64,000 nucleotides of DNA from a virus: positions 32,001-96,000 of the IMG/VR virus record IMGVR_UViG_3300010158_000028. One strand, 5' to 3'. Shown here piece by piece: positions 16,572-34,728 of the stretch (position 1 is its first letter; each line of letters starts with the position of its first letter). A model generated the notes under the pieces. The model was not told the DNA's origin. It saw only the letters and a list, made by a program, of their open reading frames with translations, and did no database searches. Both the position numbers and the translations under genes were made by a program.

Positions 16572-17158
16572 TTCAATTTTTCCTCATATATTTTCTTTTG
16601 TTCTTTATACCACTGTTGCCAACCTATTACTTGTTCTCTGGTTTGGTAGTAGGTTGCGTAGTTGTCTGTGACAGTTCGTAGGACATCACTAATTTTAACT
16701 TTGGAGGTTCCTTCAACAGTGCTTCCGGTACTTGGGGAAACGGTATTTTGACTGGCACTGTCGTGGAGCACGATTGCAGCATTAGACAACTCACACTTAT
16801 TGTCATACTTAGTAACAATGGTTTCAATAACTTTAACATTTTCATTGGCATTCTCTCTTACTATTTTAACTCTATCAACATATTTAGTCTGAATAACAGT
16901 ATTAACTTTTTCAGATTCTACTTTAACTTCTTCTACTTTTGTTTCTATCTCTGCAATTCTGGCACGATAATCTTTTGTGCCGTAATAATTACCTTCATAG
17001 AATACACCAAATAGAATAATTACTAATGCAAATGGTATTACTAATATCTTATATGGTCCTGCAAAATAACTACCAATGAATACTACAAAACCAAACAATA
17101 CAATACCATGAATTGCCCATAGTAATGATTCAGTTGGTATTAGACTCATCAAAAACAT
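16568..17158 (-). CDS. Inner-membrane spanin (Rz-like)
   Basis: N-terminal TM helices, coiled coil, late Cys; carries an embedded lipoprotein ORF. Confidence 0.7.
   Translation of the reverse strand: MFLMSLIPTESLLWAIHGIVLFGFVVFIGSYFAGPYKILVIPFALVIILFGVFYEGNYYGTKDYRARIAEIETKVEEVKVESEKVNTVIQTKYVDRVKIVRENANENVKVIETIVTKYDNKCELSNAAIVLHDSASQNTVSPSTGSTVEGTSKVKISDVLRTVTDNYATYYQTREQVIGWQQWYKEQKKIYEEKLK
16627..16851 (-). CDS. Outer-membrane spanin lipoprotein (Rz1-like), embedded in the i-spanin
   Basis: Signal peptide, lipobox LQSC, Pro-rich mature part (PVKIPFPQVP..LL..PP.L), alternate frame. Confidence 0.75.
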   Translation of the reverse strand: MPMKMLKLLKPLLLSMTISVSCLMLQSCSTTVPVKIPFPQVPEALLKEPPKLKLVMSYELSQTTTQPTTKPENK

Positions 17159-17622
17159 TAGTTACCTTTACCATATCTCAGATACATCATTGCACCAGTT
17201 TGTTCATCTTCAAGAACAATACCTTCTTTCCAATTTCTATTTGCAAATTCAGCAATCTCTTTACTTATCTCTGCATCACCTAGATATGCTTCAAATCTCA
17301 TACCTTTACGTTTTAACATTCGTGCCATTACAAAATTCTTTGTTGGAACTTTAAATACTTGTGAACCAGCAAACTTCTTTCTCTTTTCTATACCAGGTTC
17401 TGCAAATCTACCTGTACCTAGACCCGCAATCTGACCACCACCAACATTATTGGTGATTGCGCCTTCTCCATCTTCACCTAGATGTTTGAAGTATTGAACT
17501 TGACGTTCTCTTTTTTCTGCACCTTCTTTAGAAGGATAAGTACCTAGATTCTTACCTGTTTTCTTTGAAACAAGTCTATAACCACCATCTACTTTTACAA
17601 TATGTTCTTTGAATGATATCAT
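17158..17622 (-). CDS. Hypothetical, putative head-internal protein
   Basis: N-terminal MISFKE resembles the T4 capsid-targeting sequence. Confidence 0.55.
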   Translation of the reverse strand: MISFKEHIVKVDGGYRLVSKKTGKNLGTYPSKEGAEKRERQVQYFKHLGEDGEGAITNNVGGGQIAGLGTGRFAEPGIEKRKKFAGSQVFKVPTKNFVMARMLKRKGMRFEAYLGDAEISKEIAEFANRNWKEGIVLEDEQTGAMMYLRYGKGN

Positions 17623-18011
17623 TTAATTTGCCTTAATACTTCTGCAATTTCCATATCAACAGGAATATCTGCAGAGATAATATTCTTGTCTCTAATACCT
17701 TTTACAACTGATGGCATATAATTCAAATATAACAAATACGTTTTCAATGCAGGGTAATCATCAAGAGTCATCTTATAAAATAGAATTCTCGTTGATGCTT
17801 CTACACCAAAAACATTATATATTACTACTAGATGATTAATAACTAATCGTTCTCTTAACTCACCATACTTGCGATACCGAAGCAATAGTCTCTTAATGTA
17901 ATTAAACTTTTTCATGTCTTGAGTAAATTCACTCATAATGCAGTTAGGTTTGTCATAGGCCTTTGCTGCATACAATAATATATTGTTACTGTTTAACGAA
18001 TCAAAAGTCAT
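17619..18011 (-). CDS. Conserved T4-like phage hypothetical protein
   Basis: YDKPNC..EF..D.K...YIKRL; ERL..NH....YNVFG. Confidence 0.7.
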   Translation of the reverse strand: MTFDSLNSNNILLYAAKAYDKPNCIMSEFTQDMKKFNYIKRLLLRYRKYGELRERLVINHLVVIYNVFGVEASTRILFYKMTLDDYPALKTYLLYLNYMPSVVKGIRDKNIISADIPVDMEIAEVLRQIK

Positions 18012-18331
18012 TAAGTTTCTTCGGTATCTTCCTCATCTGATAGTAATTCTTCTATACGTTCACTGTTACCCATCTCAGCATAGAATTCATAATAACCATC
18101 ATCTGTTTTGCCATATATTACATATACAAGTCCTGCAACTTCTTCAGTTTCAATCTTCTTTGCACTTAATACAAATTCATCATCATCTGGATTTAACCCA
18201 TAGATTACAGGCATATCCAGACGATGATTGTATAAAATGCTTCTGATTCTTTGTATGCCAGATTCTGGTGTTAAGATATTCTTATCCAGATTTTCAGACA
18301 AAGAATCATTTACTTCATCAAAATTATCCAT
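18011..18331 (-). CDS. Acidic hypothetical protein
   Basis: ORF coupled to neighbours. Confidence 0.55.
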   Translation of the reverse strand: MDNFDEVNDSLSENLDKNILTPESGIQRIRSILYNHRLDMPVIYGLNPDDDEFVLSAKKIETEEVAGLVYVIYGKTDDGYYEFYAEMGNSERIEELLSDEEDTEET

Positions 18332-18888
18332 TAAGTATCAGGGAAGATTGTATCTTCATCATCAGCAACACTATTACTCATAGAACCCATTGCAACTAAA
18401 GTTTCTACCTGAGCCCGACCAGCACGACCGCCTACGGTAACTGTAAATGCTGCATTACCTGATGGAGGAACTGCAGTAGGTGCAGATGTGAAAGAACCAG
18501 GATTAGTGATTGCAAAACTATTAACTGATCCATTGGCATTAACTATTACAGTTGCAACCGCTGGTGTAGCACCTGTGCCACCGCCCGAAAATGTAACAGA
18601 ACCATTTGTTGTATAAGCATTTGTATTAGCAGTAATAGAAATAATACCACCTGTACCAGCTTTACGTAAATTCCATCCAGCATGTTGTGGATGTGATGCT
18701 GATGATTCTGATACTTTTTGTTCGGTAGGATCTACACCAAAAACACCTAATGCTTGACCAGTCCGAAATTGTCCAATTTTTGTGTTACTTAAAGTTGTTG
18801 TAGTAGTTACTGCATTTGCAGTAGACCGAGCAAAACCTGGAAATTTCAGGTTACCCGCTGCATTGTCTGTGTTTCCCCATAAAGCCAT
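18331..18888 (-). CDS. Virion structural protein
   Basis: MALWG..D...HAGW...GR...ETLVAM..DD.. pattern; late promoter and SD AAGGAG upstream. Confidence 0.6.
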   Translation of the reverse strand: MALWGNTDNAAGNLKFPGFARSTANAVTTTTTLSNTKIGQFRTGQALGVFGVDPTEQKVSESSASHPQHAGWNLRKAGTGGIISITANTNAYTTNGSVTFSGGGTGATPAVATVIVNANGSVNSFAITNPGSFTSAPTAVPPSGNAAFTVTVGGRAGRAQVETLVAMGSMSNSVADDEDTIFPDT

Positions 18889-18910
18889 TTGAATCTCCTT
18901 TGTTATTTGT

Positions 18911-18918
18911 TATTTATT
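18911..18918 (-). promoter_or_regulatory. T4-type late promoter variant
   Basis: AATAAATA upstream of the start at 18888. Confidence 0.5.
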
Positions 18919-20740
18919 AGAAATTATTACGAATAATTTGTGTTGACAACTCTGGTTCCGGTTCAAATTTATCTTTTGATGCCTTTTGGTCTTTTGATTT
19001 TTTAGCAATATCTTTGACCATCATTGTTGTTTTACTCACTGTTCTTTTTGCTGGTGTATTTGTTCTTTCAACATCCATCTCACTATCTTCTTTCATTTGT
19101 TTCTTTATTGCCTGTTTAGCTAGATGTTTAACTCTTGACATTGGAGAATGAACTGCACCAGATTTATCTATTTTCCCATGTGGACCATTGAATGGAATCT
19201 TTGGATCATCTTTCTTCCATCCTGTATCTTTTGACCATGAACCTTCCGCTTCATCAATTTGCACATCTTCTTTCATGTGACCATATTTCTTTTTGTACCA
19301 AGTAGGCATTCCACTTGTCTTACGGAAATGTCTAACTGTTGCTGAATCATTTGCTTGGTCACGGTATTTGTTTTCTGCATCTGTATTATGACTCTTCATT
19401 GCTTCTGCGGCAGCATGTGCATCTTTAGCAATATGAATCAGTGCTTCATCAGATTTTTTATGATACTCATGACCTTCTAAAGGATGTCTTTGTGATGGAC
19501 GACCTTCTTCAAGTGTATCTTCTTTTACTGGACCATGTTCTGATTTGGTTGTTGGTTGTTTCTTTTTTAATAGAGAACTAAGAGAATCGTAATTCTTATC
19601 AGTTTTTACATTATATTCTTTGTTACCAGGACCAATATCAGCAACTCTAGTACCAATAGGTGCTTTGTGACTGATAACAACTGCTTCATTAATCTCTTCA
19701 TCCATACGACCATTGGAAGAAAGTCTCTCTTTGCGTCTTTGAGCAGCAAAGTCAGAACCCTGTGGTTGTTTCTTCTTTTCTCTACTCAACATAGAAACAA
19801 TTGAGGACAACTTAGATTTATCTGCACCACTAATATTACTCATCTTACGTTTTTCTTCTTTTGCTCTAAGAGAAGCACCATATGCAGCATCAGATTCAGT
19901 TACATTAGATTCAACTTCTTCTTTGGCATATTTTTTCTTCAAGTATTTGTCAACCCTGCGTTCATAATCACTTTTTGGTTCTCTTGGTTGTTTTTCAACC
20001 CATGCCTTATTGGTTTTTACATTATATTCTTTATTACCAGGACCAATATCAGCAACTCTAGTACCAATAGGTGCTTTGTGACTGATAACAACTGCTTCTT
20101 GAACTGGTTTCACTGGACCATGTTGAGGAATAGTTGTTGGTGATGATCCATCTCTACGTTCTTGTGGAGTAGGAATCTTAGGTGGATTCTTAATCAACTG
20201 TTTGCTTTTCAACATAGTCATCAATCTACTACTGGCAGATTCTTTAACTGTTTTTACAATACCATTACCACCTTTAGATTTTACTGAATCTAAAAATTTA
20301 TGTGCAGTTTCTTTTGAATCATAGTGTGCTACTGATATTTTTGGTTCTGATTTATTTGTTTTGAAAAGAACTGAATGTTTTTCTTCATCAATTTTTTCTA
20401 CTGACTCATCAACTTCACTCATCAAGTAATTTGAAACGGTAGAGATATAATCTTCTGCAAGAGTAATCTTAGATTGTACCCACTCAGGAAGATTATCATT
20501 ATCTTCTAACATATCATGAACTCTTTGAGCATTGTTGATAATACTCTGTAATTGTCCACGTGCCATATCACCTTCATAATCGTATTCTGTTTTTTCTTTT
20601 GCTTCTGAAACAGGTACACAATTAGGAACCTTCTTACCATTTTTCATTTTCATACCAACTGCAGTATAACCTGTCCAACAAGCATCTTTTAACTGACCTG
20701 TTGGTTCTTTAATTTCTCTTAACTTAGAGAATCTTTTCAT
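18917..20740 (-). CDS. Charged modular protein, putative head-internal polyprotein
   Basis: CW.GY...GMKMKNGKKVPNCVP and EG.MA..QL...LPEWVQSKIT modules; many hydrophobic-X-E sites; internal duplication. Confidence 0.6.
   Translation of the reverse strand: MKRFSKLREIKEPTGQLKDACWTGYTAVGMKMKNGKKVPNCVPVSEAKEKTEYDYEGDMARGQLQSIINNAQRVHDMLEDNDNLPEWVQSKITLAEDYISTVSNYLMSEVDESVEKIDEEKHSVLFKTNKSEPKISVAHYDSKETAHKFLDSVKSKGGNGIVKTVKESASSRLMTMLKSKQLIKNPPKIPTPQERRDGSSPTTIPQHGPVKPVQEAVVISHKAPIGTRVADIGPGNKEYNVKTNKAWVEKQPREPKSDYERRVDKYLKKKYAKEEVESNVTESDAAYGASLRAKEEKRKMSNISGADKSKLSSIVSMLSREKKKQPQGSDFAAQRRKERLSSNGRMDEEINEAVVISHKAPIGTRVADIGPGNKEYNVKTDKNYDSLSSLLKKKQPTTKSEHGPVKEDTLEEGRPSQRHPLEGHEYHKKSDEALIHIAKDAHAAAEAMKSHNTDAENKYRDQANDSATVRHFRKTSGMPTWYKKKYGHMKEDVQIDEAEGSWSKDTGWKKDDPKIPFNGPHGKIDKSGAVHSPMSRVKHLAKQAIKKQMKEDSEMDVERTNTPAKRTVSKTTMMVKDIAKKSKDQKASKDKFEPEPELSTQIIRNNF
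19602..19687. repeat. 86-bp direct repeat, copy 1 (copy 2 at 20013-20098)
   Basis: Copies differ at one synonymous position; both encode EAVVISHKAPIGTRVADIGPGNKEYNVKT. Confidence 0.95.
20013..20098. repeat. 86-bp direct repeat, copy 2
   Basis: See 19602-19687. Confidence 0.95.
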
Positions 20741-20742
20741 GA

Positions 20743-21693
20743 TCAGTCCTTTTTTGCTTGTTTGGTTGCTGTTGCATACATTACTTCTTTTGCACGATCA
20801 CCATAACGCTCTTTGAAACCGGCTAAACCTTTTTTCATTGATTTAACAATTTCTTCTTTCTTATCTGTTTCAGCACCAGTTAATGTGCGCTCTTCAATCT
20901 GTTCAACTTCCACTTCAACTGATTCACTCTTTACTGCTTGAACAGAACCTTTTGATAAATCTGGTTGTGTTTTTTTACCTTCAGATTTTGCTTGTGCATC
21001 ATCTAATTGTTTTTTAACTTCTTCAGTTGAATCTTCTTCAATTTTTTCAAGACTCTCAAACAAACCTTTGATACCATTTTCTTGATAACTATTCAATAAA
21101 TTAGTAAATGATTCTCCACGCATTGCCAATTTAGCATCTCTTTTAGCTTTAGAAGCGGGTGTTTCAAAACCTCTTGTTGCTCGTGAAGCATATGTACCTT
21201 TAGATACTTTTTTCTTGGATTTCATGTCAGCTGCATCATCTGCACCTTCTGGATCAACATAGTTTTTACCATATGATTTACCTTCAATCTTACGAACAGG
21301 CAAATCTGCTAACTTAACTTCATTTAATTGTTGAACTTCTTCTTTAACTACTTCTTCTTTATTAAATGCTTTCTTTAATATTTCAGAGGTATCCTTCTTT
21401 ACTTTATTTGAAGTGATTGGTTTAACCATGTTTACATCTTTATTTTTAAGACCCAAAGGATAATCACCGCCTCGTTCCTGTGATTTTTGACTTTTATCCA
21501 TTTCATTTACTTCAACTTCTTTCTTTTGACCTTTAAGAATCTTAAAATCTTGTGCATCAATTTTATTATTGTGATTCTTATCAATATTCTTTTGAGCACC
21601 AATTAGTGCTTCTTCAACTTTTTTCTGTGCATCTGCTTCCATAATCTTTTTTACTGCATCTGCTACTGACTGCGTAGTTTTATCTGTAAACAT
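20743..21693 (-). CDS. Charged hypothetical (putative head-internal/core) protein
   Basis: EF-hand-like IDKNHNNKIDAQDF; C-terminal F..RYG....VMYATATK.A module. Confidence 0.55.
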   Translation of the reverse strand: MFTDKTTQSVADAVKKIMEADAQKKVEEALIGAQKNIDKNHNNKIDAQDFKILKGQKKEVEVNEMDKSQKSQERGGDYPLGLKNKDVNMVKPITSNKVKKDTSEILKKAFNKEEVVKEEVQQLNEVKLADLPVRKIEGKSYGKNYVDPEGADDAADMKSKKKVSKGTYASRATRGFETPASKAKRDAKLAMRGESFTNLLNSYQENGIKGLFESLEKIEEDSTEEVKKQLDDAQAKSEGKKTQPDLSKGSVQAVKSESVEVEVEQIEERTLTGAETDKKEEIVKSMKKGLAGFKERYGDRAKEVMYATATKQAKKD

Positions 21694-21736
21694 CTTTGAT
21701 TCTCCCTTTTGTTTTTATTAATTATGATTCATTTAG

Positions 21737-22852: not shown

Positions 22853-23155
22853 CTAGCAGTTCCACTTCCTCAATGATTTATTAATACGACTATCTGGATC
22901 TCGTGCAGTCTTAGCAGATGTTAATTTTGCTTTCATACCAGACATTCTAGCACAAAATGATTTTCTACGATTTGCAGATTTACTACCTGCCTTCAATTTA
23001 CTAGGTTTAGTAGTAACGGCTAATGATAAATGTGAACCAGGATGTTCTCTACGATAAGATTCAATACCTTTACGATTGAGACCACCCTCAGGGTTCTTAC
23101 CTTCTTTTCTCTGCCATGCTGCAACTTCAGCAATAAATTCTTTAAGTGTTATCAT
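22853..23155 (-). CDS. Basic conserved phage protein (DUF6321-like)
   Basis: MITLKEFIAE; AAWQRKEGKNPEGGLN; RRKSFCARM; SRINKSLRKWNC. Confidence 0.7.
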   Translation of the reverse strand: MITLKEFIAEVAAWQRKEGKNPEGGLNRKGIESYRREHPGSHLSLAVTTKPSKLKAGSKSANRRKSFCARMSGMKAKLTSAKTARDPDSRINKSLRKWNC

Positions 23156-25566
23156 AGATAGTTTTTCTTTTTAAATGAAGCAAGACTAATGCCTTGTTTT
23201 TTTAATTCATCTTCTTTTTGATCCCCGATAGATGCAGTAGTTTCATCACCAGTTAATTCACTTAATTTATCTTTCATCTTTGGTTTTGCTTTACCGTCTT
23301 TACCAATAATCTCTTGGTTCCAACCAGACATGGCCATACCAGGTTCTATGCCCATGTCAATCTCATTTATTTTTTCTTTGAGCTTCTTCTTCGCTTGGGT
23401 GAAGGAGATTTTTGTTCTTGGACTGGTGCTGGTGCTTCCACAACCGCAGTCACAACTGGCGCCACCTCCACAACTACTTCCTTCGGTGACTCTACTGGTA
23501 CTGATACTTCTACTTTGACTTCTTCCTTCTTCTTGAATATATTCTTTATGAAATTCAACATCATTACTCTCCTTAAGTTTAACTACATAAAAATTGCCTT
23601 GTTTTTCAACTTCACCATTTTTGAGATGTGCATCTTTGGCAGCGGCACGCCTCATCATGTATTTTCTAGTGTTACCTTTACCATCTTTAAGATAATTCTT
23701 TTTCTCTACACTTTCTATAAGCATTGGTGTTCCCAATGTCAATGCATTAAAGGCACTTCTATCTGAAAATTGATAATGCTCTTCAACTTCTTCTTCTGGT
23801 TCTTCATCAGATTTTAATAGTTTGATTGCCTTTGCAACTTCTTCTGGTGTATCTCCACTGAATGTAACTGTAACTGTTTCATTTATAAATTCTAAGAACT
23901 GTTCATTAACAGATTCTTTTTTTAATTTAGCAATTTTTGATGTCTCTTTAGTTTTCTGAATAGTTTCTTTTGTTTTTGCTGGTATCTGTGTATTTGATGC
24001 ACCACCTCTTGGTGTTCCAGAGGACATTGATGAACTTGATGTAGGAATATCAGGTGTTTTCAATTTAATCTTACCAACAGCAACTAACTTATCGTTGATG
24101 GAGTGATGTGTTGTTGTTCCGTTTTTACCATATCTACCAAAACCATAGTATTGTAAACCAAGTTTCATTGCTTCTTTATATGCACCAGACTCGGTAGGCG
24201 GTGTTTGATTCAAACCTTTTTCACTTGGTTTTGTTGTATCTTTCTTATTTAATTCTGTTGCCATCCATTGTTGTGCTTGTTCATGATCTGGTTGTTTTGA
24301 TGTAAATTCTTTTACTTTCTTAAAAATCTGCATCATCTCTTCTTTTTTTGCTTTCACTACTTCTGGATCTGCAGAGCGTAAATCTTCAGAGTTATCAAAT
24401 TCAATATAGTTTTGTCCAAATAGTTTAGCAAACTCGGCTCTATTCTTTTGAACTGCATCCCATTTCTCTTTACGAATATTCTCTGGTACTGTTCTACCAC
24501 CACGTTGACCACGTTCAATGTTTCTTTGTTGTGATACTTCATCTTTAGTTTGAACTGCAACCATAGATGTTGCATAACCAATCTCTTCTAACTTCTCTTT
24601 AATCTTCTTAATCTTTTCAAAATCATCACCCGTACCATTAATGATTAAACCATTGCGACCAGACAATGCCAATCTTTGGCGCAACTCAGTGACATTCTTT
24701 GCACGACCACGAACTAAATCTCTTTTGCTTTGTTCACCAGCAGGCATCTTCATATCAAGATTTTCTTTGTCCATCAAGTATTCAAATGCTTTATCTGAAT
24801 TCAATTCTGTTAATCCATGACCTGCAAGTGTATTATCTAATACATAATCTTTACCTGAACCTGGACCGCCAGATAAGAATACTGCTTTGAAGATACTCTT
24901 ATCATGCACACCTTCATCTAACTGTTGTTCAAATAAAAAATCTAATGATAGATTGAATCCTTCTTTAACACCCATACCTTTTCTTACATCATGATATAAT
25001 TCTTTGGCATGTTTATCTTGCACACGACCAGGAATGCCTTGTTTGAATTCTTTATAGTTACCAGATGTTGCATGACCTCTCATCTTAGATGCAGACATAC
25101 CTTCTGCACCCTCTGCATCAGGATCACGTTGACCAGCAGAATGAACTGTAATCTTCTTAAAATTGAAGTGTCCATGCGGTCCTTTTACATTATTGTATTT
25201 GTGTAACAACTTATGATATTCGTCTGTGCGGTCTGAACCAGCAACCATATGCAGATGTGTTGCACCTGCTTTATGTAACTTTGCCGCTTGACTTAGAAAA
25301 TTAGGATGTTCTTTATCTGATACTGTTAGATTAGTATCTGGAAAGAATCGTTTAGCATGTTTTAGTTTTTGTTGAGAAGTGAGAGGATTCTTACCTGGGT
25401 CTTGACTATGTGAGAGAACAACATGGTGTGTTCCACCAACATTTTTAGCAATCTCTTTGACTTTATTGACTAGTTTTTCGTGACCTACTGTAGGTGGATT
25501 GACTCTACCAAATGCCAAAACGGCATGCTTTTCTTTTTCTTCTTTAATAAAATCTTTAAATTTCAT
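23152..25566 (-). CDS. Cytidyltransferase-like (HxGH) domain fused to a P-loop kinase (zeta-toxin/AAA_33-like) domain
   Basis: FGRVNPPTVGH, AGSDR, GMSASKMR; second domain GGPGSGKD, NSD, IINGTG, RN..R...R.VP. Confidence 0.8.
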   Translation of the reverse strand: MKFKDFIKEEKEKHAVLAFGRVNPPTVGHEKLVNKVKEIAKNVGGTHHVVLSHSQDPGKNPLTSQQKLKHAKRFFPDTNLTVSDKEHPNFLSQAAKLHKAGATHLHMVAGSDRTDEYHKLLHKYNNVKGPHGHFNFKKITVHSAGQRDPDAEGAEGMSASKMRGHATSGNYKEFKQGIPGRVQDKHAKELYHDVRKGMGVKEGFNLSLDFLFEQQLDEGVHDKSIFKAVFLSGGPGSGKDYVLDNTLAGHGLTELNSDKAFEYLMDKENLDMKMPAGEQSKRDLVRGRAKNVTELRQRLALSGRNGLIINGTGDDFEKIKKIKEKLEEIGYATSMVAVQTKDEVSQQRNIERGQRGGRTVPENIRKEKWDAVQKNRAEFAKLFGQNYIEFDNSEDLRSADPEVVKAKKEEMMQIFKKVKEFTSKQPDHEQAQQWMATELNKKDTTKPSEKGLNQTPPTESGAYKEAMKLGLQYYGFGRYGKNGTTTHHSINDKLVAVGKIKLKTPDIPTSSSSMSSGTPRGGASNTQIPAKTKETIQKTKETSKIAKLKKESVNEQFLEFINETVTVTFSGDTPEEVAKAIKLLKSDEEPEEEVEEHYQFSDRSAFNALTLGTPMLIESVEKKNYLKDGKGNTRKYMMRRAAAKDAHLKNGEVEKQGNFYVVKLKESNDVEFHKEYIQEEGRSQSRSISTSRVTEGSSCGGGASCDCGCGSTSTSPRTKISFTQAKKKLKEKINEIDMGIEPGMAMSGWNQEIIGKDGKAKPKMKDKLSELTGDETTASIGDQKEDELKKQGISLASFKKKNYL
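23367..23564 (-). CDS. Candidate overprinted small protein inside the 804-aa gene
   Basis: Strong SD AAGGAG (23569-23574) before ATGATG; amphipathic N-terminus, Val/Glu/Pro linker, basic tail. Confidence 0.55.
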   Translation of the reverse strand: MMLNFIKNIFKKKEEVKVEVSVPVESPKEVVVEVAPVVTAVVEAPAPVQEQKSPSPKRRRSSKKK

Positions 25567-25596
25567 GTTCTCCCGCCTCTATAGCAAGTTATACTG

Positions 25597-25604
25597 TATT
25601 TATA
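25597..25604 (-). promoter_or_regulatory. T4 late promoter
   Basis: Exact TATAAATA upstream of the start at 25566. Confidence 0.75.
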
Positions 25605-26052
25605 CTTTTAACATCTTCACATAATCAGAACAAACACCTATTGGGTTAATTTGTTTAATTTCTTCATAGTTCCAATGTTTTTCTGGCATTACCATAATCG
25701 TCATATCATTAACAACTTCTTTACCCGGATATGCCCATGTATACCCAAAATTAGTCATTGTATAGTCATCATTTTCATGCCAAAAATAATGTAGTTTTGG
25801 ATGATTAAAACAATATGCCATTGCACGAACATCTTTACAATGAATCCATAGATGGTCCACTCTATCAATTAAGTAATTCTCTTTTACTTTGTATTGTTCA
25901 CAATCATGGCCAAAGTATAAATCATTCTTAATCATTCGTAAATCTACTTCAACACAATAACCACGTTCTATGGCATCATCCAAATAATAAGGATTGTTTT
26001 CTTCTGCAATATTAGGTCCGTTAATATTACCTCTGTGTGCAATCAGTATCAT
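25600..26052 (-). CDS. Glycerophosphodiester phosphodiesterase-like protein
   Basis: IAHRG, EVD, GHD, HCK, G.CSD. Confidence 0.75.
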   Translation of the reverse strand: MILIAHRGNINGPNIAEENNPYYLDDAIERGYCVEVDLRMIKNDLYFGHDCEQYKVKENYLIDRVDHLWIHCKDVRAMAYCFNHPKLHYFWHENDDYTMTNFGYTWAYPGKEVVNDMTIMVMPEKHWNYEEIKQINPIGVCSDYVKMLKV

Positions 26053-26729
26053 AGGTTTATAACAACTCCTAAGTTTTCTCCACGACCAGAAGGAATCATA
26101 ATCTCAACTTTTTTACCTATCTTCTCAAATAAATGATCATGTACCTTTTGTGTAAAACTCCATTCATATACATCGTGAAATGCTAATACATACTTATCTG
26201 CCAATAATGGTAAAAATGCATCAATATCTTTAATCATTTGTTCTTCAAAATGACCAGCATCAATAAAGACAAAATCTAATTTCTCACGAAAATGATTCTT
26301 AATGCATCTAAACGTATCATCTGGACTCCAACCAATCTCAGGAAATAACGTATTCTGTAATTCAAACTTCTCAATAAGATATTTTACAGATTTATAACCA
26401 TCAGATGTTTCATATACTGTTCTTTCAAAATCTTTGTATGCACCAGGATTCTGACATTTCTCTTCAATGTATGCATCCATAGTAACTATCTTACCACCAG
26501 TTTGTTTGAAACCTAATCCAATTGCACAACTACTCACACCAAATGCAGTAGCACATTCATATCCTCTCTGCAAATTATGTTCAATAATCAAATCTCTAAG
26601 AAAATTAAATTCTTCTTCTTTTATAGAATATGGATATGGATGTTGTTTCATCTTAATATGACCACTACCCGTATTCTCATACTGAACTGGTCCATCTTCA
26701 AACTTTACTATTTCTTCAAATTGACTCAT
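26049..26729 (-). CDS. Class I SAM-dependent methyltransferase (Methyltransf_24-like)
   Basis: E.ATAFG.S, DFVFIDAGH, AFHD. Confidence 0.75.
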   Translation of the reverse strand: MSQFEEIVKFEDGPVQYENTGSGHIKMKQHPYPYSIKEEEFNFLRDLIIEHNLQRGYECATAFGVSSCAIGLGFKQTGGKIVTMDAYIEEKCQNPGAYKDFERTVYETSDGYKSVKYLIEKFELQNTLFPEIGWSPDDTFRCIKNHFREKLDFVFIDAGHFEEQMIKDIDAFLPLLADKYVLAFHDVYEWSFTQKVHDHLFEKIGKKVEIMIPSGRGENLGVVINL

Positions 26730-27442
26730 TTATCCATCTCCACGTATTCACCTTTAGGTGTATGTTGTAATGTTTTATGTATGCTAAATTCTTTCCATGG
26801 TAATCTCATATCAGATATCCATTGTGTAGATAAAACATGTGGACACAATAAATCAGTTTTCATATACAAATGCGTTAAGAAACATGATGCCTTAGAAAAC
26901 AACATCATATTAAACATATTACCCGCTTGAATCATATCACCTGTACCTTGACCGAGATGATTACGATGTGCCATAGTATAGAACTTATCAGTTTCAAATT
27001 CTGGCAAATCTTCATGTAGAATCATATCTGGTCTCATACGTATAACTAAATCATAAAACATACCAGTATGTGATACAAAGTTTTCTACTAAACTAATACC
27101 CGCATGTAACTTATGAAACATTGATAAGATATTCTTTGGTCTATGTGCAAAATTCTTATAAAGATTGCCACGATACTCAAACAACTCATTGTAATTATTC
27201 CAATCTTCAATTACTAATGATGTTGGTTTGTATGCCTCAATAATCTCTTCTCTATCAATCTTTGGGGTATCTTCAAAATACCCTTTCTCATTTTGTTTAT
27301 CCCCAGGTATCCACCATCCCTCTTCATTCCATGTATGAATAAAAATATCAGGATTGTATCTATCAATTACCTTCTCTTTAAAATTAGGTAATACATCACG
27401 CCAACACCTAAGATGTCCAGTTAATACTATAGCAACTTTCAT
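26726..27442 (-). CDS. Putative glycosyltransferase
   Basis: KVAIVLTGHLR, DIFIHTW, YDLVIRMRPD, GD. Confidence 0.65.
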   Translation of the reverse strand: MKVAIVLTGHLRCWRDVLPNFKEKVIDRYNPDIFIHTWNEEGWWIPGDKQNEKGYFEDTPKIDREEIIEAYKPTSLVIEDWNNYNELFEYRGNLYKNFAHRPKNILSMFHKLHAGISLVENFVSHTGMFYDLVIRMRPDMILHEDLPEFETDKFYTMAHRNHLGQGTGDMIQAGNMFNMMLFSKASCFLTHLYMKTDLLCPHVLSTQWISDMRLPWKEFSIHKTLQHTPKGEYVEMDK

Positions 27443-28269
27443 CTGTCTGTATGCACTTTCAAAAAAGTATTATTCATTGTGTTTATTTCATTTTTAATCC
27501 ACATAGGATTATATGAAGAATAAACATGTTGAAAAATATGTTCATCAATCAATTCCTGACTTTCTATAAAACTTGTTTTACAATAAATTGCATCGTCATT
27601 AAAATTTAATATTTTTAATTTAGCAGATTTGTGCAATAGTAAATAAAACCCATATATGATGTAATCAAAATCTTGTGAATTAACTTTAATCCAATTCTCT
27701 TCATAGTTTATATATTCTAAAAAATCTGTGAAGTTTAATTTGCTATAAACCGGTATATCATTAAACCAAAAGAAAACATTCATTGTAGTGCCATTAACTT
27801 CAGAATTAAACATACCATATGAAAGAATATCACTTAACTTCTGTTTTTCAAAATCTGTAAAAAACTTCAATGGTTCAGTTTGATAATAATACTTTTGTTG
27901 TATTAAATTTGAATATAATGTATTCTCTTTTATTTTATGGTAAAATAGTGTATCATAATCCATATTTTTAAGAAATAACGTATCAACATCAATTACCCCA
28001 ACTTTATCAAATTCATCTTGTGTAAAAATCTCAATCAATCCACTGTATTTTTTTTGAGTAATAACACCATAATTTACGGGTCTTTGATTAACAATTGAAC
28101 GATATTTTAACTTTTTGTTTTTTGTTTTGAATTCTTTTGCATCTTCTTCAGATGAAAATATTAAGTAAATATGATCATCATTAAAGTGTTTATTATAACT
28201 CTCTATTAATTTACTACCTTCATCAAATTTTGGTGGATGTATTGGTGCAAGAAAACAAGATTTGTTCAC
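27439..28269 (-). CDS. Putative GT-A fold glycosyltransferase
   Basis: KK..GL, DVD (DxD), FWFNDIP; context. Confidence 0.5.
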   Translation of the reverse strand: MNKSCFLAPIHPPKFDEGSKLIESYNKHFNDDHIYLIFSSEEDAKEFKTKNKKLKYRSIVNQRPVNYGVITQKKYSGLIEIFTQDEFDKVGVIDVDTLFLKNMDYDTLFYHKIKENTLYSNLIQQKYYYQTEPLKFFTDFEKQKLSDILSYGMFNSEVNGTTMNVFFWFNDIPVYSKLNFTDFLEYINYEENWIKVNSQDFDYIIYGFYLLLHKSAKLKILNFNDDAIYCKTSFIESQELIDEHIFQHVYSSYNPMWIKNEINTMNNTFLKVHTDR

Positions 28270-29636
28270 TTGTAATTCTCTAAAAAGTAATTCAAATCTT
28301 CAGGTGTACCTAATCCCCACATCTTGTCAATGTTCTTTACACGAATCTTTTTACCATCACCAATTGCTTCATTGAATACTGGACAAACATAAAACTCATT
28401 GTTTGTTCTGATATTCTTCTCAATCATCTGTTCTGTATACTTAACATAATCAGAACCTTTCTTCCAGTAATAGATACCTACAGTAGCAATATTTGAAATA
28501 GGATTCTTCTCTGCAACTTCAGATACAAACCCATCATCACCTAACTTAGCAAATGACCACTTAGGATGTGTTGCTTCAAATGTAACAATACCACCATCTA
28601 CTGTATCTGCAGTAAATGCATAGAGACATTCATTTGAATTCCATTCTGCAAACTGATCTGAGTTTGCCATCAATAATGGTTGATCATTATCAATAAATTC
28701 TTTTGCAAGTAATGTAGTGCAAGCCGCACCTTCTGTAATACCATCTACTTGAACAATATCACAACCTGGTGCAATTAGATTCAATAACTGCTTTAGATTG
28801 TATTTCTCGTAGTGATCTTTTTGTACCAAGAAGATAAAGTGTGCATCAACATTTAAGTTTTCAACAACAACTTGAATCATTGGTTTGCCATTAACTTCAA
28901 TTAATGGTTTAGGAAATGTGTATCCTGCTTGAGCAAATCTACTACCAGCACCTGCCATTGGTATTAATACATTCATCTTATTATCTCTCCATGGTATCTT
29001 TTTTCTCGTCACGCCATCAAGTATATCTTTTGCTTCATCAATCTTTTCTTTGGTCAAATCTGTTGTATCTTTTACGGGTACTAGATGAGCACCAGAATTC
29101 AATGCACCTTCACGACCAATATGACTATCTTCAATGATTACTGTATTCTTAGGCAATACATCTAACTCAGTCATACATTTCCAATACATTTCGGGAAATG
29201 GTTTTGTTCTCTTTACATCTTCATTACTGATATAGTAATCAACAAACTCTAACACACCAATACTTAGTAATGCAATCTTTACAGTTTCACGAATTGAATT
29301 ACTAGCAACTGCAATCTTAATACCTTGTAACTTAAGTAACTGAAATGTATCAATTAGAAATTGATTCTTTGGAAACTGTTTGATAAGTGTAAAAGTAATC
29401 TCTTGTTTATCGGACCATACTTTAGTATAATGACTTGGACTCAAACCTTTATCATCTGTCAACATCTTAAGTTTCTTTGTAGTATTTAATCCATCATACT
29501 TACTTAAGTGTTCTTCACGACTGATTACGTATTGTTCACCAAATTGACTTAATGCAACATTCAGTGCTTCATAGTGTAATTCACGACTATCAATCAATAC
29601 ACCATCAAGATCAAAAATAATTAACTTATTGTGCAT
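28266..29636 (-). CDS. HAD phosphatase fused to sugar-phosphate nucleotidyltransferase
   Basis: FDLDGVL, ASN, KP.P, EDS..G; then IPMAGAGSRF...PKPL, EK, GIYY, NEFY, GLGTPEDL. Confidence 0.88.
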   Translation of the reverse strand: MHNKLIIFDLDGVLIDSRELHYEALNVALSQFGEQYVISREEHLSKYDGLNTTKKLKMLTDDKGLSPSHYTKVWSDKQEITFTLIKQFPKNQFLIDTFQLLKLQGIKIAVASNSIRETVKIALLSIGVLEFVDYYISNEDVKRTKPFPEMYWKCMTELDVLPKNTVIIEDSHIGREGALNSGAHLVPVKDTTDLTKEKIDEAKDILDGVTRKKIPWRDNKMNVLIPMAGAGSRFAQAGYTFPKPLIEVNGKPMIQVVVENLNVDAHFIFLVQKDHYEKYNLKQLLNLIAPGCDIVQVDGITEGAACTTLLAKEFIDNDQPLLMANSDQFAEWNSNECLYAFTADTVDGGIVTFEATHPKWSFAKLGDDGFVSEVAEKNPISNIATVGIYYWKKGSDYVKYTEQMIEKNIRTNNEFYVCPVFNEAIGDGKKIRVKNIDKMWGLGTPEDLNYFLENYK

Positions 29637-30249
29637 CACGATGTACCTTGTTGTGACGAACAATACTCTTGCCATTACATACCCATTTGCATTGTGTTCT
29701 CATGCGTAATGACCATTCTACATCTTCTGCTTGATGATGAACTAATTCTTCATTGAAAGGTATTTTAGTTGCTAACTCTTTCTTAACAATCATAAACCCA
29801 CCAGATTGATACATGCATAATGTCTGTGACCAATCATCATATGGTAATGATGCATACTGTGGAAAGAATGGTGAATCCCAGATAACCCAATCAGTGAAAT
29901 GTCTTTTACCATTAATCAATAACTGTTGGCACGATGCAACATCCCAATCATCACCAAACTCAAGAAAGTTTGTATACCAATCTTTATCAAATACATAATA
30001 ATCATGCATCAATACTACATTCTCATACTTTGCAGATTGAACTAATGTATTTTTCTTTCGTGTGATCCAACCTTCTTTTTCAGATTCATCAAAGTAAATG
30101 TATTTTACAGTATCAGTATCTTCATGTTTGGTTGGTCCAATACATAAAATTTCATAGTTAGGTATGTTTAGTGCTTCAATAGATTGAAAAACTTCATTCA
30201 ACTGATCCATATTTTTATAGGTAGTTGTTATTCCAAATGTAAAATTCAT
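29626..30249 (-). CDS. Glycosyltransferase family 2-like
   Basis: FGI.T, IT.KKN, HDY, FNE.L....EDVEWS. Confidence 0.7.
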   Translation of the reverse strand: MNFTFGITTTYKNMDQLNEVFQSIEALNIPNYEILCIGPTKHEDTDTVKYIYFDESEKEGWITRKKNTLVQSAKYENVVLMHDYYVFDKDWYTNFLEFGDDWDVASCQQLLINGKRHFTDWVIWDSPFFPQYASLPYDDWSQTLCMYQSGGFMIVKKELATKIPFNEELVHHQAEDVEWSLRMRTQCKWVCNGKSIVRHNKVHRDAQ

Positions 30250-31202
30250 ACAAGCCTCATTATATCGTCAACGGTGTTTTTAATTAAATGGTTTAGCGTT
30301 ACAAACTCGTGTGCATCATCTATCTGTTTCTTTCTGACACCTTTAAACTTCTGCATATACTCTACCAACTCATCATCATTGGTATAAGTAAATCCAAATT
30401 CTTTTAATACCTTTGCACCAGCAATCTCTCTTGATGCCCATGGTGTTCTATTCAACATAGATTCCAATAACACAAGACCAAACCCTTCTTTGTGTGAGTG
30501 CATAATATATAGATCGGCTTCACTGAGTGCAGATAATACTTCATTTCTATCTTCAATCATTAATGCCTTAACATTATCAGTATCATTAGGTTTGATTTGA
30601 TGTCTATTATCATAACCTGTTAATACTAATGTTACATCTTTTCTATCTACTTTACCAAATGCTTCTACTAACTCATTCATTGCTTTGTTGGGCCAGTATC
30701 CACCACATGACAGAAACATATACTTAGTAGTGATTTCATACTTCTCACGAAAACCTTTTTGTCCTACTGATACTTTATCATCTATGCCATGTCTAATCTG
30801 AACTGATTTTCTCATTACAGATTTACGTTTAACATACTCCCAATCTTCTTGTGTTGAACAACCAAGATACTTAACATTTTGAATTGCTCTTTGATATACA
30901 TTACTTTCAGATGGAACAATAAGCATAAACACAATTGGTGATGGTATCTTATTACAATTATTCAATACAAAATCTTGTAATCCAACATCACCACCATGAA
31001 CAACAATTAAGTCCCACTTTTCTAATAGTATAGATGCTTCATTAGATACACGAACACCATTTAAATTACCTTGATGTTCACCTGCAAATACTGCAACTTC
31101 ATGTCCACGACTTAATGTTTCATCTGCCATATCACGAACATAGTTTTCAGAACCACCAGGATATGGTGCATATCTATGAACAACATATAAAATCTTACTC
31201 AT
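30246..31202 (-). CDS. Glycosyltransferase family 4 (GT-B)
   Basis: GGSE, GHEV.V, K....L, EGFGLVLLESM. Confidence 0.88.
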   Translation of the reverse strand: MSKILYVVHRYAPYPGGSENYVRDMADETLSRGHEVAVFAGEHQGNLNGVRVSNEASILLEKWDLIVVHGGDVGLQDFVLNNCNKIPSPIVFMLIVPSESNVYQRAIQNVKYLGCSTQEDWEYVKRKSVMRKSVQIRHGIDDKVSVGQKGFREKYEITTKYMFLSCGGYWPNKAMNELVEAFGKVDRKDVTLVLTGYDNRHQIKPNDTDNVKALMIEDRNEVLSALSEADLYIMHSHKEGFGLVLLESMLNRTPWASREIAGAKVLKEFGFTYTNDDELVEYMQKFKGVRKKQIDDAHEFVTLNHLIKNTVDDIMRLV

Positions 31203-32034
31203 ACTGTGCCTCTATTTCTCTACGCCATTCTGTTCTATCATATTGATGAACAATACAGAATTCTTTACCTGTGCTAGTTAAAACTTTACCGTTCTCAAAC
31301 TTAGGACTTGGTTCTAATAGTTTAGGTCTAAATTCATCAATCTTTGATGGGTCTGCAGTAGTACCTAATTGACATGCCCATCCATCTTCAGATTTCATAT
31401 AACGACTATATGAATTATCTTTGTATGGTAATTGTGATATCATAAAATTGAATGTTGATTGGTCACAAATAGGAATAGGTCTATTGATTGCGGCAGTAAA
31501 GATATTGATTGCAAGTGATTTCATTGCTTCATGTCTACCACCCAATACACCTACATTATAGATTTCATTATCTCTAAACTTCTCATGGATATATGGTCCA
31601 TAAGTTTCTAATAGATTGTTATCGCCCCAAGGTTCATCTTTATACAAAATACTTTCAGATGCAAACAATAGATGTTGGCGTTGACCTAATTGTTCTTCTA
31701 AGAACTTTGATGGATTGGTTTGAAATATAACATCTTTAACATCGGTAGTAATTACATACCGATATTCATGTGTAGATAGATGTTCGTAGATGTGTAGGAA
31801 TCGTTCTACATGAACAGGTAATTTTGATTGGTAAACTAGATTACCATCTTTATCTTGATTGAATCCTATGATGTTTACACCACAACTTGCAACTTGATAT
31901 GCGGTTTTTGAATCACAATTCATTAAGATAAGGGCAATATCACCTTCAAATCCTGATCGTCTAATTGAAAGAACCCAATATTTAATTGTGTCCCATGTGT
32001 AATTGGTACTGCATCCTATAATCAAATCTTTCAT
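31195..32034 (-). CDS. Putative glycosyltransferase (GT-A)
   Basis: TDVKDVIFQ.NP, N.GV.GG, DQ..FN, VHQYDR; SD GAGGGAG supports this start. Confidence 0.7.
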   Translation of the reverse strand: MKDLIIGCSTNYTWDTIKYWVLSIRRSGFEGDIALILMNCDSKTAYQVASCGVNIIGFNQDKDGNLVYQSKLPVHVERFLHIYEHLSTHEYRYVITTDVKDVIFQTNPSKFLEEQLGQRQHLLFASESILYKDEPWGDNNLLETYGPYIHEKFRDNEIYNVGVLGGRHEAMKSLAINIFTAAINRPIPICDQSTFNFMISQLPYKDNSYSRYMKSEDGWACQLGTTADPSKIDEFRPKLLEPSPKFENGKVLTSTGKEFCIVHQYDRTEWRREIEAQYE

Positions 32035-32062
32035 TATAAACTCCCTCAAAAATTATGTAATA

Positions 32063-32182
32063 TTACTGTCCTGGTGTATCTTTCTGGTAATTCTTTTTCA
32101 ACTCATCTGACCCATCTTCACCCGCACCTGCTTTTGATTTAAACTCTTGCTTCTCTTTTATATATTCTTTAAAGGATAACAC
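32063..32182 (-). CDS. Small protein (39 aa) with capsid-targeting-like N-terminus
   Basis: Hand translation from GTG overlapping the upstream TAG: MLSFKEYIKE...NYQKDTPGQ. Confidence 0.6.
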   Translation of the reverse strand: MLSFKEYIKEKQEFKSKAGAGEDGSDELKKNYQKDTPGQ

Positions 32183-33414
32183 TATTTGCTCCAATTCTTT
32201 GCGGCAGTAAAGTTGTCATGTGAGAATTCTAATCTATCAATTAGTTTAACTGCACCACCTTTAAGTTTATCTACTGCAACAAAACCTTCAGGATTGGATA
32301 TCTTGAATCCATCATCGGTACGAATAAATGTACCTGCAACTTGTTTAATCTCTCTTAACTTACGAACAATCATATTCTTTGCATCAACTAGTTTGTTCTG
32401 TAAATCAAATATTAATTTTAATTGTGCAATATTGGAACGATAGAATCTAAGCACCTCATTCTTCTCTGCAATCTTTCTTGTTTTAGTCTTTTCTAACTTT
32501 GCGGCAAGAATTTCTTTATTCTGTCTATCTTCTACCCATTTAATTAAATCTCTAGTATGTTGTGTTGTGTTTTTTATTTCTTGACCTTCACGAACTTTAG
32601 TATTATTAAATGTTTTGATTTGCATTAAGAATGTTTCACTGGTAGATATTCTATTCAATGTCAATGAATTAATTTGACTGAGTATTCTTTGTGCTTCAGA
32701 TATATGTCCTGCTAATTCTAATGATTCTTGTTTAGTAAATGTTGCAGTACCAGAAGCATCAATGAAAGATGCATCACGATACCAAACATCTTTAGATGCC
32801 TTTAAGTTACCAATATCAATATTGAAAGATGATTTCATATCTGCTAGTGTATCACCACCAGAATATGCAGTATGAAATACAATTCCCATCTGTGATGCAA
32901 GAACTGTCTTTGCTAATTTAGAATCTTCAGGTATTGCATAGACTAAAGTATTAGGTTGAAATGTAATATACTTTTCACCATTGATAGTTTCTTTTTTGAT
33001 ATCATCTTTGGTAAACATCATATCACCTTGAAGAATACCATCAATGTTTAATTTCTTGAGGTATTTCAATGCAATCTTTAATTTTATATTGAGACCTTCA
33101 CCCGGATGATTTTTATCTATATCTGCATTTGTATAGTTTAGTTTAGGATTGTTTGCGAATACACCTTTAGTACCAACAAAGAACTTATTGTTTTCTGGAT
33201 TGACACCACAGATGATTGCGGGTGCACCATCCCATTTAGTAGTTACATTCACTTTACTTTCTGAACTACTAGCAAGCATATCTTTAAGAGAACGAAGAAA
33301 GTTAATGGCTGCTTTAGAACCAGCAACACCATTATTTAATACTTCATCTTCTAAATGTTCTAGGTGAACATTTTTACCTTCTTTTGATTCGTTTATAAAT
33401 TCTATGAATTTCAT
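32182..33414 (-). CDS. Conserved T4-like protein (DUF6267-like)
   Basis: MKFIEFINE, KN.HLEHLED, TTKWDGAPA, QGD..F, EGFV, KL.DRLEFS; KxDG/EGFV/K recall nucleotidyltransferase (ligase) motifs. Confidence 0.7.
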   Translation of the reverse strand: MKFIEFINESKEGKNVHLEHLEDEVLNNGVAGSKAAINFLRSLKDMLASSSESKVNVTTKWDGAPAIICGVNPENNKFFVGTKGVFANNPKLNYTNADIDKNHPGEGLNIKLKIALKYLKKLNIDGILQGDMMFTKDDIKKETINGEKYITFQPNTLVYAIPEDSKLAKTVLASQMGIVFHTAYSGGDTLADMKSSFNIDIGNLKASKDVWYRDASFIDASGTATFTKQESLELAGHISEAQRILSQINSLTLNRISTSETFLMQIKTFNNTKVREGQEIKNTTQHTRDLIKWVEDRQNKEILAAKLEKTKTRKIAEKNEVLRFYRSNIAQLKLIFDLQNKLVDAKNMIVRKLREIKQVAGTFIRTDDGFKISNPEGFVAVDKLKGGAVKLIDRLEFSHDNFTAAKNWSK

Positions 33415-34720: not shown

Positions 34721-34728
34721 TATTTATA
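34721..34728 (-). promoter_or_regulatory. T4 late promoter
   Basis: Exact TATAAATA, followed by SD GGAG and the start at 34697. Confidence 0.75.

Follow-up and report, generated by a model that had tools for sequence, protein, structure and literature searches.

The closest described counterpart of the system analysed here is the capsid targeting sequence (CTS) of phage T4. In the T4 record (NC_000866) the internal proteins IPII and IPIII begin MKTYQEFIAEA and IPI begins MKTFKEF. For packaging, also of foreign proteins, residues 1-10 of IPIII are enough (PMC9026906, describing Mullaney and Black 1996; here as below, papers are cited from the portions of their text available to us). Residues 4 and 7 of the CTS act in targeting and residues 8 and 10 in processing, and an Asp at residue 10 prevents cutting, not targeting (PMC9026906). 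The T4 capsid also carries an injected ADP-ribosyltransferase, Alt, which is cut by gp21 and thought to act immediately on injection (T4 record note; PMC9026906); its N-terminus, MELITELFDE, is a different propeptide, and its C-terminus is cut as well. In the giant phages phiKZ, 201phi2-1 and SPN3US, which belong to another lineage, many head-internal proteins are cut C-terminal to Glu by a gp21-related protease, and the available part of PMC9026906 describes no short common decapeptide tag for them. Here we analyse CTS-like leaders in a stretch of 64,000 nucleotides (nt), hereafter the window, which comprises bases 32001-96000 of the 161,182-base IMG/VR virus record IMGVR_UViG_3300010158_000028 (CheckV completeness 96%). 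An initial annotation had picked out six N-termini in this window as CTS-like and proposed that the proteins bearing them are packaged as a set. We consider it likely that the leaders are functional equivalents of the T4 CTS and that their cargo is carried in the head of a distant marine T4-like phage.

The six N-termini indeed lie on the minus strand with the starts assigned to them, and a seventh case was found elsewhere in the genome (lengths in amino acids, aa):

17158..17622, minus strand: basic protein of 154 aa, start 17622, leader-like MISFKEHIVK (first noted as MISFKEH), weak candidate
18917..20740, minus strand: Lys/Glu-rich basic protein of 607 aa, start 20740, diverged MKRFSKLRE(-IKE), weak candidate; 29-residue repeat at residues 215 and 352
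22853..23155, minus strand: DUF6321 basic protein of 100 aa, start 23155, strong leader MITLKEFIAE (nt 23126-23155); PF19846 (6.5e-20), domain from residue 19; mature pI 10.9
23152..25566, minus strand: protein of 804 aa, start 25566 (MKFKDFIKEE), strong leader MKFKDFIKE (nt 25540-25566); phrog_3041 'cytidyltransferase' (5e-69) and Zeta_toxin/AAA_33 kinase
32063..32182, minus strand: open reading frame (ORF) of 39 aa, GTG start at 32182, strong leader MLSFKEYIKE
32182..33414, minus strand: DUF6267 protein of 410 aa, a predicted RNA-ligase-like nucleotidyltransferase, start 33414 (MKFIEFINES), strong leader MKFIEFINE (nt 33388-33414); PF19782 (2.4e-109), domain from residue 15
genome 19394-19999, minus strand, outside the window: protein of 201 aa, strong leader MISFKEFIKED, the seventh case

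The choice of start codons appears reasonable from the gene context. The ATG at 33414 is internal to a longer ORF and lies 3 nt past the stop of the upstream gene, the GTG at 32182 has one base in common with the DUF6267 stop, and the ATG at 23155 and the stop codon of the 804-aa gene overlap. The leaders follow the consensus M-x-(x)-[F/Y/L]-x-x-[F/Y]-[I/L]-x-E. The targeting positions (residues 4 and 7 of T4) are hydrophobic or aromatic in the 804-, 410-, 100- and 39-aa proteins and in the 201-aa protein, and these five strong cases have the processing motif [I/L]-x-E, as IKE, INE, IAE, IKE and IKE, respectively. The 607-aa protein has F4 and L7, with LRE/IKE for processing. In the 154-aa protein the second aromatic residue is replaced by His and there is no Glu at the processing position (HIVK); if targeted, it would probably not be cut there.

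We quantified the association of the leader with gene starts in two ways. The core [FYL][KQSI][ED][FYH]I, a motif defined post hoc, occurs nine times in the 51,701 residues of the 235 greedy non-overlapping ORFs of the whole genome, and six of the nine lie at residue 3-4 behind the start codon (binomial 4.6e-11 for this post hoc motif). A position-specific scoring matrix (PSSM) was then trained solely with 82 leaders, all of them from DUF6267 homologues on other contigs, and used to score 49,351 positions. The four top scores were all N-termini, those of the 410-aa (26.9), 804-aa (26.8), 201-aa (19.9) and 39-aa (18.0) proteins, with the best internal scores at about 11; the 100-aa protein scored 8.5 (rank 7). 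A looser pattern run over all possible starts gave no additional real gene start of the leader type. Five of the 235 ORFs thus carry the tag. We class the starts at 17622 and 20740 as weak because the former has no Glu and the latter is diverged, and because their PSSM scores are at noise or outside the top 30. The likeness to the T4 CTS is therefore strong for four of the six N-termini initially proposed.

Compared with the T4 CTS, the window leaders keep the pattern aromatic-x-x-aromatic-[I/L]-x-E, i.e., the targeting and processing positions of T4. In both systems the N-terminus is a ten-residue leader whose positions 4 and 7 are aromatic and whose positions 8-10 read I-x-E, with a small residue next; both place it on unrelated, mostly basic proteins encoded at variable, cassette-like spots, in a phage that also encodes a gp21-type protease, a gp22 core and gp23. 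They differ in that the present phage is a distant marine T4-like phage, that two of its leaders are one residue shorter (M-K-F vs M-K-T-Y), and that its cargo, known here from sequence alone, includes enzymes of 410 and 804 aa, whereas that of T4 consists of small restriction-inhibitor proteins. Given the shared residue pattern, the leaders are probably homologous to the T4 CTS. The likeness extends to Alt, since one IMG/VR contig has the exact leader on an ART-PolyVal ADP-ribosyltransferase.

PHROG scans identify the record as a T4-type phage, with DNA polymerase gp43, clamp, clamp loader, RegA, UvsX/UvsY/UvsW, gp46/47, late sigma factor gp55, tail tube gp19, gp23 and the scaffold gp22. Nearly all genes of the window lie on the minus strand, and G+C is 32% in the genome and 28-39% in the window. 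A megablast of 17 kb against isolate phages gave no match. The best isolate match of the DUF6267 protein is in Methylophilales phage Melnitz (48%), and its other matches are mostly in T4-like cyanophages. The genome encodes the head-assembly functions on which a CTS would depend:

61749..63083, minus strand: gp23-like major head protein (phrog_138, 1.6e-156)
63108..63869, minus strand: gp22-like head scaffolding (core) protein (phrog_237, 6e-75), the presumed docking partner of the leaders
genome 96123-96773, minus strand, just outside the window: gp21-type protease gene (Peptidase_S77, 3.8e-35)

T4 gp21 and the S77 protease share 39% identity over 147 residues (E 5e-32), and the gene of the latter is followed by gp20, gp67-like and gp68-like genes. 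Between the last two, where T4 has only core proteins, lies a gene for 276 aa (genome 97573-98403, minus strand) that starts MKSLQEFKSIVEEEK and partially matches the leader (MKSLQEFKSIVE, PSSM 5.6).

The leader is widespread and modular in IMG/VR. The exact pattern MK.FKEFI.E occurs at no fewer than 122 loci, or about 390 stretches by extrapolation. Nearly all of the 107 distinct ORFs among the matches listed begin at the tag, with an in-frame stop a few codons upstream, and among these same matches the parts past residue 11 of 103 exact-leader sequences fall into 51 BLAST clusters. A Pfam scan of 37 representative ORFs gave a match for nine and none for 28; the nine comprise an S-adenosylmethionine (S-AdoMet) lyase, the ART-PolyVal ADP-ribosyltransferase, DUF6321 (two), DUF5661 (two), a DPBB lytic-transglycosylase-like protein and two weak matches. 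The mature parts of proteins of the present phage have homologues in the exact-leader set (E 2e-11 for the 607-aa, 1e-26 for the 100-aa and 3e-45 for the 201-aa protein), and its own leader cargo belongs to five different Pfam/PHROG families.

These data also bear on the trivial explanation that the N-termini are alike through A+T-rich codon bias, or because unstructured mRNA is favoured where translation starts, with no peptide signal at all. The tag codons are A/T-rich (AAA, TTT, GAA, ATT), as this would predict in a window of such G+C. Yet codon-permuted patterns of identical composition gave only one and three stretches in IMG/VR vs the ~390 of the true pattern, and just the five ORFs mentioned above are tagged in the present genome. 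Synonymous codons vary freely at every degenerate site of the 105 distinct DNAs. Conservative F/Y and I/L exchanges are free to vary too, and S-CREM2 and S-SM1 encode the tag with different codons. Of the 105 DNAs, 95 encode T, S or N as residue 3 and 62 encode S or A directly behind the Glu, both as in T4. Since synonymous codons vary while the free positions match T4, the constraint acts at the level of the peptide. We give codon bias a negligible probability.

The occurrence of the leader follows that of the protease. Peptidase_S77 was found in 12 of the 20 largest leader contigs (31-247 kb, most 12-55% complete) and in all three leader contigs at least 90% complete. As a control we used 19 contigs of at least 31 kb that match an arbitrary N-terminal pattern; S77 was present in three of them, and where completeness is 90% or more, in one of 11 (leader vs control contigs, Fisher one-sided p = 0.005). 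A search for PF07068 (Gp23) on the eight S77-less leader contigs gave no match, but it gave none in the controls either and is uninformative. The leader can, on the other hand, be detached from the domains behind it. It is present in 118 of 119 close homologues of DUF6267 and, for the 804-aa protein, in 113 of 120, whereas among 150 diverse DUF6267 representatives 56 have it and 17 begin directly at the domain (K-N-x-H-L-E-H motif). Nucleotidyltransferase homologues bear it in P-SSM2, S-CREM2, Melnitz and Stenotrophomonas phage DLP_6, and do not in the jumbo phages MIJ3 and RCIP0023 (other families). Judged from these distributions, it is the protease that the tag accompanies, rather than the enzyme domain. 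Leader proteins of Melnitz and the window proteins in the same positions are not homologous: we rejected its 361-aa leader protein as an orthologue of the 426-aa protein upstream of DUF6267 (E 2.1), and its 131-aa leader protein as an orthologue of the 154-aa protein (E 0.37). AlphaFold2 (AF2) models likewise separate leader and domain. In that of DUF6267, residues 1-11 are the sole segment with a predicted local distance difference test (pLDDT) score below 50, with a free helix at 4-10, and in the 804-aa protein residues 1-10 have a mean pLDDT of 50.

Both leader operons are preceded by TATAAATA, which we take to be the T4 late-promoter motif:

25597..25604, minus strand: TATAAATA, 37 nt upstream of the 804-aa ATG
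33417..34697, minus strand: 426-aa protein (phrog_1462) without leader, heading the DUF6267 operon, the first gene behind the late-promoter motif
34721..34728, minus strand: TATAAATA, 30 nt upstream of the 426-aa gene

A further copy lies 12 nt before the tail-tube gene gp19. The motif is depleted in the window, with five copies found vs 12.7 +/- 3.4 expected (100 of 100 shuffles had at least five), and four of the five are on the coding strand. This depletion is consistent with selection against stray late promoters.

Experimental evidence on packaging comes from cyanophages, where nucleotidyltransferases orthologous to the domain in the 804-aa protein (by tblastn), with the same leader, were detected in virions. 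The 'citidylyltransferase' T4-GC190 had 25 peptide counts in purified S-SM1 virions, where gp6 had 25 and gp22 had 22 (Sullivan et al. 2010, PMC3037559). In the sequence file of that paper S-SM1_190 begins MKKFSAFLNEA, and 12 of the 17 T4-GC190 entries from 16 cyanophages have the leader. Mass spectrometry of S-CREM2 virions revealed 52 proteins, six of them 'non-structural', whose true packaging was left undecided (Liu et al. 2023, PMC10665884). The whole S-CREM2 record has only two ORFs with MK.F..F[IL].E, the cytidylyltransferase gp154 (MKNFSSFLTEA) and the SAM hydrolase gp6 (MKDFDSFLEE), and both are among these six (PMC10665884; chance probability ~6e-4). The S-SM1 record has a single such ORF, the virion-detected one, and S-CREM2 gp6 falls in the largest exact-leader cluster of IMG/VR among the matches listed. 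In the cyanophages, as here, the nucleotidyltransferase gene has DUF6267 upstream. Compared with the 804-aa protein, those of the cyanophages are shorter (286-424 aa), as the kinase domain and the C-terminal portion are missing, and the available text of PMC3037559 and PMC10665884 reports their presence in virions with no mention of a targeting leader. We found no paper tying a capsid targeting sequence to enzymes of cyanophages or other marine phages, nor any on DUF6267 or DUF6321, in a search that covered literature other than subscription journals.

Such data also speak to the idea that the leader is an address or regulatory tag unrelated to the capsid. It could dock the proteins on a cytoplasmic partner that they share, or it could act, with no packaging involved, as a propeptide that inhibits the enzymes until the late prohead protease removes it. 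T4 itself offers an argument for it, in that gp61.1 has the tag in the early gene region, and a processing motif beside the tag would suit timed activation. Against it, ten residues alone package foreign proteins in T4 (PMC9026906), and three of the four canonical-leader ORFs for which we examined proteome data are in virions. We regard a non-capsid role as improbable.

Several observations weigh against packaging as the function of these leaders, or at least against its generality. T4 gp61.1, a protein of 54 aa that begins with the canonical tag MKTFKEFIKE and that, to our knowledge, is not known as an internal protein, sits among early replication genes; therefore, the leader alone need not mean packaging. 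The S-PM2 DUF6267 is leaderless, as are five of the 17 cyanophage T4-GC190 entries (P-HM1, P-HM2, Syn1, the fused S-PM2 protein and the second, 90-aa entry of S-ShM2), so that members of these families in T4-like phages need not have the leader. The leader-bearing Syn9 gp184 was not detected in the Syn9 proteome, and neither was the leaderless fused S-PM2 T4-GC190 in its own (PMC3037559 Table S8). The Syn9 column misses eleven known structural proteins, including gp13, gp15, gp3, gp22, gp48 and gp21 (PMC3037559), and we take this proteome to be less sensitive because known structural proteins are missing too. The authors of PMC10665884 warn that abundant enzymes may co-purify with virions. Eight of the 20 leader contigs have no S77 gene, which, as they are 12-55% complete, is uninformative rather than contrary. 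The late-promoter call consists of an 8-mer only. Finally, two of the six N-termini listed at the outset are not above noise, the 154-aa protein with a PSSM score of 2.6 and the 607-aa protein outside the top 30. The proposal of a packaged protein set is accordingly narrowed: a leader that is modular, tied to S77 and borne by orthologues found in virions of relatives supports it for the 804-, 410-, 100- and 39-aa proteins, as well as for that of 201 aa, and the other two of the initial six remain weak. The best reading, in our view, is the known T4 mechanism, here with enzymes as cargo in a distant marine relative.

By analogy with T4, the leader genes would be expressed late. As a short free helix in front of a folded domain, the leader would bind the gp22-based scaffolding core, and the protein would thus be built into the prohead. 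The gp21-type S77 protease would then cut after the Glu of [I/L]-x-E and free the basic mature protein, to be kept in the head with the DNA. The predicted cargo consists of the DUF6267 RNA-ligase-like enzyme, a NadR-like nucleotidyltransferase-kinase, the very basic DUF6321 protein and the 39-residue peptide, with, outside the window, the 201-aa protein resembling HAD/polynucleotide-kinase-phosphatases. Core binding, cleavage after Glu and ejection into the host are inferences, as are action of the enzymes there ahead of phage gene expression and any anti-defence role.

The initial annotation had read a ligase motif in the DUF6267 protein, and our results support this. A K-x-D-G with catalytic lysine is motif I of the superfamily of ATP-dependent RNA ligases and covalent nucleotidyltransferases. 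The 410-aa protein has TTKWDGAP, and in an alignment of 76 sequences K60 and G63 are conserved in at least 90% and D62 is invariant. The AF2 model made with this alignment has a pLDDT of 89.5. When it was compared with the Protein Data Bank (PDB) by VIA-align, the eight best rows were ATP-dependent RNA ligases, with middling Z values of 7.1-8.9 (Naegleria nick-sealing ligase 5cot 8.9, T4 Rnl2 7.9, Trl1 7.8, T4 Rnl1 7.5), vs 5.5-6.5 for DNA ligases. Foldseek of the model against the PDB gave nothing at E <= 0.001, and a PDB sequence search gave nothing meaningful. With moderate confidence, we thus class DUF6267 as RNA-ligase-like from the motif and the modelled fold. The 39-aa ORF behind it is part of a cassette of 121 nt, in place of which contigs with 96-100% identical flanks have 284 nt with a 92-aa gene; we rejected the 39-aa ORF as a conserved gene, as close relatives have the 92-aa gene there. 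More distant relatives have other leader genes at the same spot after DUF6267. The internal protein loci of T-even phages are polymorphic (PMC12373910, PMC9026906), and the variable spot recalls them.

In the 804-aa protein the leader is followed by a HIGH-motif nucleotidyltransferase (residues ~12-200), next by a P-loop kinase (~225-440) and finally by a C-terminal part that is variable. The nucleotidyltransferase and kinase motifs, GRVNPPTVGHEKL and GGPGSGKD, respectively, are conserved. In Foldseek searches with the AF2 model of residues 1-450 (pLDDT 77), the two-domain matches were ATP sulfurylase-APS kinase (1.8e-7) and NadR (6gyf, 3e-6 over ~450 columns). Taken alone, the kinase domain is closest to bacterial polynucleotide kinase (template modelling (TM) score 0.62-0.64, with 0.62 for 4jt2; Foldseek 1.3e-5) and the transferase domain to nicotinate mononucleotide (NaMN) adenylyltransferases (TM 0.5-0.56) and PPAT. 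Matches of the nucleotidyltransferase domain to Pfam/NCBIfam cytidylyltransferase families were below the cut-off, and a PDB sequence search gave only weak adenylate-kinase matches for the protein (E ~1e-3) and nothing meaningful for this domain. By predicted fold and domain order, residues 1-450 appear to have a NadR-like two-domain build. The C-terminal part contains two leader-like motifs:

~23590-23610, minus strand: EFHKEYIQEE, near residue 655
23869..23904, minus strand: NEQFLEFINETV, residues 555-566, PSSM 5.0, not above noise

A leader-like motif beyond residue 430 was found in 22 of 120 close homologues, whose total lengths are 459-948 aa. These motifs are possibly relics of fused cargo modules, or an internal protease site.

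Internal I-x-E motifs of this type would also fit the view that the leader does target the prohead core but that its bearers are only assembly aids, degraded or expelled at maturation like gp22, with nothing functional delivered. The T4 core proteins gp22, gp67 and gp68 are gp21 substrates (T4 record notes; PMC9026906), and the leader-like 276-aa gene of the present phage sits inside the head module. This view is at odds with the presence of the orthologous nucleotidyltransferase and of the SAM hydrolase in mature purified virions (PMC3037559, PMC10665884). Furthermore, the cargo proteins are conserved enzymes with intact catalytic motifs, and an S-AdoMet lyase or an ADP-ribosyltransferase with an exact leader makes sense only if active in a cell. 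A pure assembly role therefore seems to us quite unlikely.

The mature cargo proteins are basic (pI 9-11), and DUF6321 homologues in IMG/VR bear the exact MK.FKEFI.E leader. Residues 40-103 of the mature 607-aa protein match IMG/VR exact-leader proteins; because these homologues start with the exact leader, MKRFSKLRE occupies the position of the canonical tag of its relatives. Residues 50-82 of the 154-aa protein resemble a 58-aa exact-leader protein (E 5.6e-6, in a small database). The Gly-rich middle and Lys-rich tail of T4 gp61.1 resemble this same 58-aa protein and the same residues of the 154-aa protein. Outside the window, the protein of 201 aa contains the motif D-x-D-x-T and gave a PHROG match to phrog_415 'polynucleotide kinase' (3e-9), but nothing significant in Pfam; the HAD family occurs in only 10-15% of the members of its atlas neighbour clusters.

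T4 Pnkp and Rnl1 form a heal-and-seal set. The combination of ligase, kinase and phosphatase predicted here resembles it, and the NadR-like build would point instead to NAD salvage. A tentative extension is that the tagged set is an injected repair kit, in which the RNA-ligase-like enzyme, the nucleotidyltransferase-kinase (of polynucleotide-kinase or NadR type) and the HAD phosphatase-like protein would reseal cleaved host tRNA/RNA or rebuild NAD+ before phage expression, and so disarm anticodon-nuclease or NAD-depleting abortive infection in abundant marine bacteria. We consider this doubtful. If the tag works as in T4, the injected protein set ('injectome') of ocean T4-like phages, which are among the most abundant viruses in the sea, could be predicted from sequence alone. 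This would provide a simple explanation for the cytidylyltransferase and the SAM hydrolase in purified cyanophage particles, left open in the available text of PMC3037559 and PMC10665884. It would also single out classes of enzymes possibly active within seconds of the onset of infection, i.e., RNA-ligase-like, NadR/polynucleotide-kinase-like, S-AdoMet lyase and ADP-ribosyltransferase, and suggests ready tags for loading foreign proteins into T4-like capsids other than those of coliphages.

The neighbourhood of the leader genes contains other features. The two leader operons are separated by an island of ~6.4 kb (window 25600-32049, minus strand) encoding glycosyltransferases, a methyltransferase, a 469-aa HAD-nucleotidyltransferase fusion and other proteins; a possible function is to make sugar nucleotides with which DNA or virions are glycosylated. 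Immediately upstream of the presumably late DUF6267 operon, a 371-aa protein (window 34738-35853, minus strand; phrog_19197, 1e-131) matches Pfam DruA, the Druantia protein, over residues 90-199 (E 7.6e-9, over the cut-off), and is thus a case of a defence-system-like domain in a phage. Between the 154- and 607-aa genes, a 185-aa protein (window 18331-18888, minus strand) starts MALWGNTDNAAG and lies behind a AATAAATA motif; in Melnitz, the counterpart has the annotation 'putative S-layer protein'. The proteins detected in S-SM1 virions include T4-GC425, listed as an 'S-layer domain' protein (PMC3037559 Table S8). Some exact-leader ORFs, in at least five IMG/VR contigs, continue with TPTNSVGTGG...GPVAGFD. 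This stretch resembles the gp23 of the present phage just past its presumed propeptide (TNASGTGGFGG...GPVAGFD), and the S-CREM2 virion protein gp160 has a similar GPVAGYD stretch.

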